DNA of 12,525 nucleotides from IMG/VR virus record IMGVR_UViG_2711768034_000010. The stretch is one strand, 5' to 3'. Source of the DNA: a virus (Duplodnaviria; Heunggongvirae; Uroviricota; Caudoviricetes). A program made the position numbers and the translations under genes. Within the stretch, counting starts at the first letter, position 1. Every line of letters begins with the position of its first letter. Below, piece after piece: positions 7,640 through 7,740 of the stretch. The notes under the pieces were generated by a model. It worked only from the letters and a program-made list of their open reading frames with translations. It was not told where the DNA came from and ran no database searches.

Positions 7640-7740
7640 AAACGGATTCCTATGATTTCCACACAAGCAGATATTAGGCTAAGCCTAATAAACAATCAAT
7701 AGGAATTGCCTAAGCTATAGGTTATGAGGATTATTAGGCA
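7640..7740. promoter_or_regulatory. Divergent promoter/operator region (OR-like) between cro-like and cI-like genes
   Basis: Perfect 9+1+9 palindrome TATTAGGCT-A-AGCCTAATA at 7672-7690, plus further TTAGGC-type half-sites at 7708-7715 (GCCTAAGC) and 7733-7739 (ATTAGGC, between the repressor SD and ATG). Possible plus-strand -35/-10 TTGCCT (7706-7711) and GATTAT (7729-7734). Confidence 0.5.

Follow-up and report, generated by a model that had tools for sequence, protein, structure and literature searches.

The 101-bp gap between two divergent regulator genes at 7640-7740 is very likely the right-operator region of a lambdoid prophage immunity switch of the RacR type. It lies in a 12,525-nucleotide stretch of viral DNA (IMG/VR record IMGVR_UViG_2711768034_000010), referred to as the window. 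[quoted passage not shown] Since the K-12 motif, the three-operator layout, and an O3 operator overlapping the repressor ATG have been published, the present region is the known RacR operator region in a different allele. The initial annotation had proposed that the repeats are repressor operators in a lambda-style switch and that the repressor regulates itself. This proposal is supported, because the gene beside the gap encodes a RacR equivalog, the same motif is found in the same places as in K-12, and dozens of diverged relatives have kept the layout.

Reading of the sequence placed the gap between a minus-strand ATG at 7639 and a plus-strand ATG at 7741, exactly as first annotated, and it also confirmed the perfect 19-bp palindrome at 7672-7690 (TATTAGGCTAAGCCTAATA, also readable as TATTAGGCT-A-AGCCTAATA). 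The two further TTAGGC-type half-sites described in the initial annotation are present as GCCTAA at 7708-7713 and TTAGGC at 7734-7739, but each is half of an imperfect full dyad with a 3-bp center. The dyads are unstranded sites with two 8-nt arms around the 3-bp center, of the type TTAGGC-N3-GCCTAA. Their centers are at 7681, 7706, and 7741, corresponding to -60, -35, and 0 when counted from the A of the repressor start codon. The perfect dyad, O1 (7672-7690; TATTAGGC-TAA-GCCTAATA), has no mismatch in the 12 core positions, and two mismatches each are found in O2 (7697-7715; CAATAGGA-ATT-GCCTAAGC), located 25 bp from O1, and in O3 (7732-7750; TATTAGGC-AAT-GCTTAGTG). Between GAGGA (7727-7731) and the ATG, where a site had been noted between the Shine-Dalgarno sequence and the start codon, only the left half of O3 is found; the dyad as a whole is centered on A7741, and its right half constitutes repressor codons 1 to 3 (Met-Leu-Ser).

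When up to three mismatches were allowed, the 19-bp dyad pattern matched five times in the window (0.04 expected), and five or more matches occurred in 0 of 200 shuffles. The hexamer TTAGGC by itself was not enriched (10 in the window versus 6.4 expected); the enrichment signal lies in the dyad geometry and the clustering, not in the bare hexamer. When at most two of the 12 core positions were allowed to mismatch, six sites remained in the window: the three in the gap, two at 9611-9654, and one stray at about 4102-4120. The stray site (AATAATGCTTGGCCTAATA at 4102-4120; core, 4104-4118; 2/12 core mismatches) is located over the start codon of an acyltransferase gene. It was rejected as an operator, as one such site per window fits chance (about 0.2 to 0.5 expected per 8 to 13 kb at the same stringency). 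In addition, a lone half-site, TTTGCCTAAT, perfectly complementary to the left arm of O3, is present at 7516-7525 in the cro coding region. K-12 likewise has one isolated extra half-site, but it is located within racR.

The plus-strand gene (7741-8217) encodes a 158-aa prophage repressor of the RacR family with 56% identity to K-12 RacR. The protein matched the RacR equivalog NCBIfam NF049929 with 254.3 bits (cutoff, 200) over residues 1 to 148, and identical E. coli records carry a racR annotation for this gene. The identification came from NCBIfam, since Pfam and PHROGs gave nothing significant for the repressor; the match to Pfam YdaS_toxin was subthreshold (E=0.004). Pfam did not match an S24 peptidase domain (PF00717) in it either. 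Therefore, the gene first described as cI-like does encode a repressor, but not one of the cI/LexA type, and induction cannot run by RecA-stimulated self-cleavage of this 158-aa protein. The AF2 model (mean pLDDT, 75.6) predicts a five-helix N-terminal domain, a disordered linker (residues 75 to 91), and a helical C-terminal part with a final helix of 30 residues. Foldseek comparison of this model with the PDB returned nonsignificant matches only (E ≥ 0.59), the top ones all being of the XRE-type HTH class, among them the lambda cI N-terminal domain, C-proteins, HipB, and ImmR. No solved structure of a repressor relative was found by sequence search.

On the other side of the gap, the minus-strand gene at 7376-7639 was correctly recognized as cro-like. 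It encodes an 87-aa YdaS/P22-Cro-type protein of the YdaS family (Pfam YdaS_toxin [PF15943], E=2.7e-30; P22_Cro, E=3.9e-7), which belongs to PHROG 35 (transcriptional repressor) and is 56% identical to K-12 YdaS. A CII of the YdaT type was not found downstream of cro; the minus-strand gene at 6895-7347 encodes a CII-like activator of the YmfL/CP76 family (Pfam Phage_CP76, E=2.4e-14; PHROG 101 [CII-like], E=6e-45; NCBIfam YmfL equivalog, 205 bits, cutoff 90). It is followed by a gene for a Dam-type methylase. The immunity module is a mosaic, and the CII family does not bear on the repressor-operator pair.

The PR-like promoter for cro-cII was located on the minus strand at 7671-7699, with the -35 element TTGATT (7699-7694), a 17-nt spacer, and the -10 element TAATAT (7676-7671). 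O1 fills the spacer and the -10 element, and O2 lies on the -35 element. At the sequence level, the position of PR is homologous to that of the experimentally mapped K-12 promoter PydaST (TTGACA/TAATAT), and the assignment is based on sequence reading and on this homology. The -35 element of PR is weaker than in most relatives, which have TTGAC (GTCAA alignment column). A consensus promoter scan of 7300-8400 missed PR and also the candidate repressor promoter, its sole report being an antisense site within cro; PR is absent from the list because its 8/12 matches are under the threshold.

For the repressor gene, a candidate PRM-like promoter is found on the plus strand at 7706-7741, with the -35 element TTGCCT (7706-7711), 17 nt, the -10 element GATTAT (7729-7734), and a putative leaderless start at A7741. 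This candidate rests on the conservation of the GAT-N-AT hexamer among enterobacterial relatives and on the leaderless racR transcript of K-12. If the assignment is correct, both divergent promoters have their -35 element within O2, and O2 occupancy could either activate or repress the repressor promoter. The autoregulation that was initially deduced from an operator in the ribosome-binding region is supported, but O3 reaches beyond the gap between the Shine-Dalgarno sequence and the ATG and covers the start codon as well as the presumed leaderless start. Therefore, autoregulation would act at transcription initiation and not at the ribosome-binding site.

The cro gene contains a further promoter-like sequence, TTGACA-16-AACAAT, at 7573-7600 on the plus strand, antisense to cro and directed toward the repressor gene; it could be PRE-like. 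It was rejected as a counterpart of the YdaT-activated K-12 promoter PracR4 due to its different position, the stretch homologous to PracR4 being about 7516-7550. This latter stretch of cro (TTGCCT...CACTGT) is not promoter-like, and it was rejected as a counterpart of PracR4, the K-12 reverse promoter, as well.

Much of what can be said about the function of such a region comes from K-12. Thermal shift assays, ChIP-qPCR, and EMSA, the last of which gave three complexes, showed that RacR binds the racR-ydaS region, and RacR was found to repress ydaS (Krishnamurthi et al. 2017, PMC5700373). There is a single strong ydaS promoter (TTGACA/TAATAT), and of three racR promoters the strongest, PracR3, gives rise to a leaderless transcript (Wisniewska et al. 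2022, PMC9638921). In DNase I footprints, the ydaS promoter with O1 was protected first, at the lowest RacR concentration; the RacR monomer site is ATTAGGC, and the operators O1 to O3 conform to (T/A)TAGGC-n3-GCCTA(T/A), with O1 covering the ydaS promoter and O3 placed so that its spacer falls on the racR ATG (PMC9638921). Several Enterobacteriaceae, among them Klebsiella, have O1 to O3 conserved in front of racR (PMC9638921). The K-12 work includes mutagenesis and racR autoinhibition (PMC5700373, PMC9638921), and RacR was found to be octameric in solution (PMC11014345). We read the dyads of the K-12 racR-ydaS gap as ATATTAGGC-GAC-GCCTAACG, CAATAGGC-TGT-GCCTAATG, and GGGATTGCCTAATG, and that on the racR ATG as TATTAAGC-AAT-GCTTAGTG.

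The dyads and their positions are conserved far beyond K-12. We retrieved 246 repressor relatives at E ≤ 1e-5 and compared 105 related loci taken from genomes and viral contigs. Repressor residues 1 to 73 are extremely conserved, with 33 invariant columns in 23 diverse sequences, and the C-terminal half is variable. Of 66 distinct upstream regions, 63 have a dyad whose center coincides exactly with the A of the repressor start codon. The remaining dyads are at -60 and -35 (within 1 to 2 bp) in the compact type and at -87, -61, and -36 in the Rac type, and the -60/-35/0 layout or its four-dyad Rac variant is maintained from Enterobacterales to Betaproteobacteria. When 36 nonidentical compact-type intergenic regions were aligned, the half-sites were 80 to 100% conserved, compared to about 50 to 60% for the central triplet of O1 and about 30 to 50% for the flanks. 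The core of O2, AATAGGAATTGCCTAA, is almost invariant among the relatives, and the conservation of the half-sites persists even in gaps that otherwise could not be aligned, such as those of Achromobacter, Herbaspirillum, Pigmentiphaga, and Azoarcus.

Furthermore, the RacR N-terminal DNA-binding domain (70 to 87% identity) was found fused to an S24 peptidase in the repressors P0091, P0098, P0104, P0105, and P0117. The locus taken as that of P0105 (L027; Herbaspirillum MAG contig WNDX01000021.1, 41,380 bp) has a -59/-35/0 layout and a second dyad pair downstream of the repressor gene. This suggests that the induction module is swapped between repressors on a fixed operator specificity.

In the window, the second dyad pair is associated with a PL-like promoter on the plus strand at 9627-9655 (TTGACA [9627-9632], 17 nt, TAACAT [9650-9655]; 10/12 consensus matches), which reads toward the ParB-like and integrase genes. 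The OL1-like operator (9636-9654; CATTAGGC-ATA-ACCTAACA; unstranded) lies in the spacer and the -10 element, with the same geometry as O1 in PR, and the OL2-like operator (9611-9629; CATTAGGC-TAA-GCCTATTG; unstranded), 25 bp from OL1, overlaps the -35 element. Because the dyad arrangement and the 25-bp spacing are identical at PR and PL, both appear to be built on the same operator-promoter cassette. Since OL dyads of this geometry lie over a strong PL-like promoter, the same repressor would also silence the other early operon. Downstream of the repressor gene, 89 of 103 distinct related loci have an OL-like pair with 25-bp spacing, whose distance from the ATG (0.58 to 3.2 kb) varies with the cargo inserted. 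These loci of about 6 kb are otherwise nearly devoid of dyads, so the reservation that the motif might be equally dense in unrelated sequence does not apply: the dyads are not spread through such sequence.

K-12 Rac also has a dyad pair of the OL type, located upstream of ydaG. In K-12, silencing or loss of racR leads to 40- to >100-fold derepression of genes downstream of this pair (ydaG, kilR, and recE). We found no published description of the Rac OL dyad pair in the literature searched.

To the right of the repressor gene, the order is endonuclease-like gene, terminator, dyad pair, ParB-like gene, integrase gene, and tRNA-Ser, and the distance between OL and OR is 1.94 kb. The endonuclease-like cargo gene (8373-9542, plus strand; 389 aa; Pfam HSDR_N, E=2.4e-14; PHROG 4225 [endonuclease], E=2e-152) is probably a defense or cargo gene expressed in the lysogen. 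Its position between the repressor gene and OL is that of rex (rexAB) in lambda. In E. coli 13P484A, an IS5/ISKpn26 element is found in the repressor-OL interval in place of the endonuclease-like gene (locus L001). The intrinsic terminator of the repressor operon (9571-9600, plus strand) consists of a 9-bp stem (9571-9592) with a loop of 4, followed by a T-run, and ends just before OL/PL. Downstream of PL, an untranslated leader of about 240 nt (9662-9900) has a folding energy of -80.8 kcal/mol (z=-3.05 versus shuffles) and contains GC-rich hairpins, e.g., at 9828-9847. It matched no Rfam family and might be an antitermination (nut-like) or regulatory leader.

Could the dyads primarily be operators of the Cro-like (YdaS-type) or the CII-like protein, with the 158-aa protein acting elsewhere? 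Both divergent proteins have HTH domains, YdaS of K-12 and of CP-933P also binds the intergenic region and represses itself (PMC9638921, PMC8630535), and K-12 YdaT binds within the intergenic region, too. However, the K-12 RacR footprints fall exactly on the TTAGGC repeats (PMC9638921), and the dyads track the RacR DNA-binding domain across loci with differing neighbors, including those of the S24-fused repressors. Moreover, O3 is part of the repressor's own first codons, and the CII family differs here from YdaT with the dyads unchanged. We consider this explanation unlikely: the dyads are likely shared with Cro, but exclusive use by Cro is not likely.

A role of the palindrome as a nucleic acid structure (RNA hairpin, terminator, or DNA cruciform) instead of a protein site is highly improbable, although the gap folds somewhat better than shuffles (z=-2.1) and the palindrome corresponds to an 8-bp hairpin. 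No T-run follows the palindrome, and a terminator scan found none here. Transcription from PR would start downstream of the palindrome, which is part of the promoter spacer, so it would be absent from the cro mRNA. The same sequence recurs as imperfect dyads unable to form good hairpins. Among the relatives, both arms are invariant and only the central triplet changes; invariant arms that do not covary fit a protein-binding site and not a hairpin. Chance occurrence of a palindrome and half-sites in AT-rich intergenic DNA, for which the lack of significant enrichment of the bare hexamer could be cited, has a negligible probability. It is refuted by the shuffle statistics together with the positional and alignment conservation, the positions agreeing at single-base-pair level among dozens of diverged loci, and the orthologous sites have been footprinted.

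With the dyads read as RacR-type operators, the switch could work as follows. Dimers of the 158-aa repressor would bind the three TTAGGC-N3-GCCTAA dyads. Dimers on O1 and O2, probably bound cooperatively, would occlude PR and thereby shut off the Cro-like and CII-like genes. O3, presumably the weaker site, would be filled at a higher repressor concentration, blocking the putative leaderless repressor promoter; since it covers the -10 element and the start of the probably leaderless transcript, its occupation would limit repressor synthesis when the concentration is high. OL1 and OL2 would be filled likewise, and PL would be occluded. In lambda, CI bridges OL and OR by a DNA loop. Because K-12 RacR is octameric, a loop may also bridge OL and OR in the window. 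The Cro-like protein probably uses overlapping sites. Since K-12 YdaS did not repress racR (PMC9638921), the circuit is not a copy of that of lambda. Binding, site order, repression, the leaderless transcript, and the octamer were established with the K-12 orthologue, and the present allele would be expected to behave in the same way.

The element that carries the switch is a remnant with an intact immunity region, as seen from a fusion ORF and a missing replication gene. The ORF at 5176-6018 joins a RusA-like N terminus (residues 1 to 63) to a tail-fiber-assembly/glycine-rich C terminus, and this fusion looks like a deletion scar. Comparison of 5176-6018 and 6028-6867 with the Klebsiella phage KpF5 revealed that the KpF5 replication gene between cII and the methylase gene is absent from the element. 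Due to the missing replication genes and the fusion ORF, a true lysis/lysogeny decision is unlikely in the present host, and the circuit would most likely just keep the remaining early genes silent. A tRNA-Ser gene (anticodon CGA; 12399-12488), located directly beyond the integrase gene (11309-12286), is likely where the prophage remnant has its attachment site; the gene that follows it in E. coli records is mtfA. The island adjoins a sialate O-acetylesterase/acyltransferase block, which is also present in E. coli HS, where the immunity region is missing. Only 10 of 5426 complete E. coli genomes contain the cro-OR-repressor stretch at 100% identity, in every case on the chromosome, and 100% identical repressor genes are present on many IMG/VR contigs of about 35 to 50 kb.

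Because the motif and the layout were published, the conceptual gain is small. In terms of annotation, the OR and OL operators, the PR and PL promoters, and a terminator were placed in a formerly unannotated gap and immunity region, which is found on a rare E. coli island and, nearly identically, in Klebsiella temperate phages. Modest additions are the conserved 25-bp OL pair, the three-dyad layout with both -35 elements inside O2, and the conservation of the domain-operator cassette to the base pair across distant hosts, also with S24-type repressors. These additions bear on the cross-immunity of cryptic prophages against incoming phages.

A broader reading is possible, although we regard it as rather doubtful. 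The RacR DNA-binding domain and the operator cassette (OR at -60/-35/0 plus the OL pair) might represent one nearly invariant immunity specificity across diverged prophages from Enterobacterales to Betaproteobacteria, including the S24 versions. It would confer cross-genus superinfection immunity, with octamers looping OL to OR. If so, a resident cryptic copy, such as the remnant or K-12 Rac, would repress PR and PL of an incoming RacR-type phage, e.g., KpF5, and diversification would take place in the C-terminal sensor or oligomerization domain and not in the operator specificity.

Among the known systems, K-12 Rac shares with the window the RacR repressor, the YdaS-type Cro, and dyads of ATTAGGC half-sites with a 3-bp center. 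It also has O1 in a cro promoter with the -10 element TAATAT, O3 on the repressor ATG, and the 25-bp OL-like pair after the repressor gene. In contrast to the three dyads (-60/-35/0) in 101 bp of the window, Rac has four (-87/-61/-36/0) in a 123-bp gap (locus L003, 4243-4365). As a consequence, the two -35 elements of the window share O2, whereas the extra Rac operator separates them. Further differences are the PR -35 element (TTGACA in Rac, TTGATT in the window) and the CII gene (YdaT versus the YmfL/CP76 type). Due to the 389-aa cargo gene between repressor and OL, the OL-OR distance is about 1.9 kb in the window, compared to about 0.65 kb in K-12.

Klebsiella phage KpF5 (OR327748) is 98.7% identical to the window over cro-OR-repressor and has the same three OR dyads and OL pair; the operators are not annotated in its record. 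In contrast to the window element, KpF5 was recovered as a phage and is a complete 38-kb phage genome with the replication, Q, and rusA genes that the window element has lost. The PaaR2-YdaS-YdaT system of CP-933P in E. coli O157:H7 (PMC8630535) also has a lambdoid immunity region with a YdaS-type Cro and PL/OL after a cargo-bearing repressor operon, and its leaderless repressor gene and octameric repressor (PMC8630535) would count as further likenesses to the present switch. However, its operators are four equally spaced palindromes of the consensus GTTTAGTAA, and its cargo is a toxin-antitoxin pair instead of an endonuclease-like gene.

Lambda resembles the window in having divergent repressor and cro genes, a tripartite right operator with adjacent operators 24 to 25 bp apart from center to center, and a second operator set over PL, located beyond the repressor operon. 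For two further aspects, the leaderless repressor transcript and the octameric repressor, the likeness comes from K-12 RacR alone. In contrast to lambda CI, the window's repressor has no S24 autocleavage domain and no sequence homology to CI, its fold matches the CI N-terminal domain only weakly (E>0.5), and the operator sequence is different. Moreover, O3 of lambda is located upstream of the start codon and that of the window on the start codon, and OL comprises three sites in lambda but two in the window.
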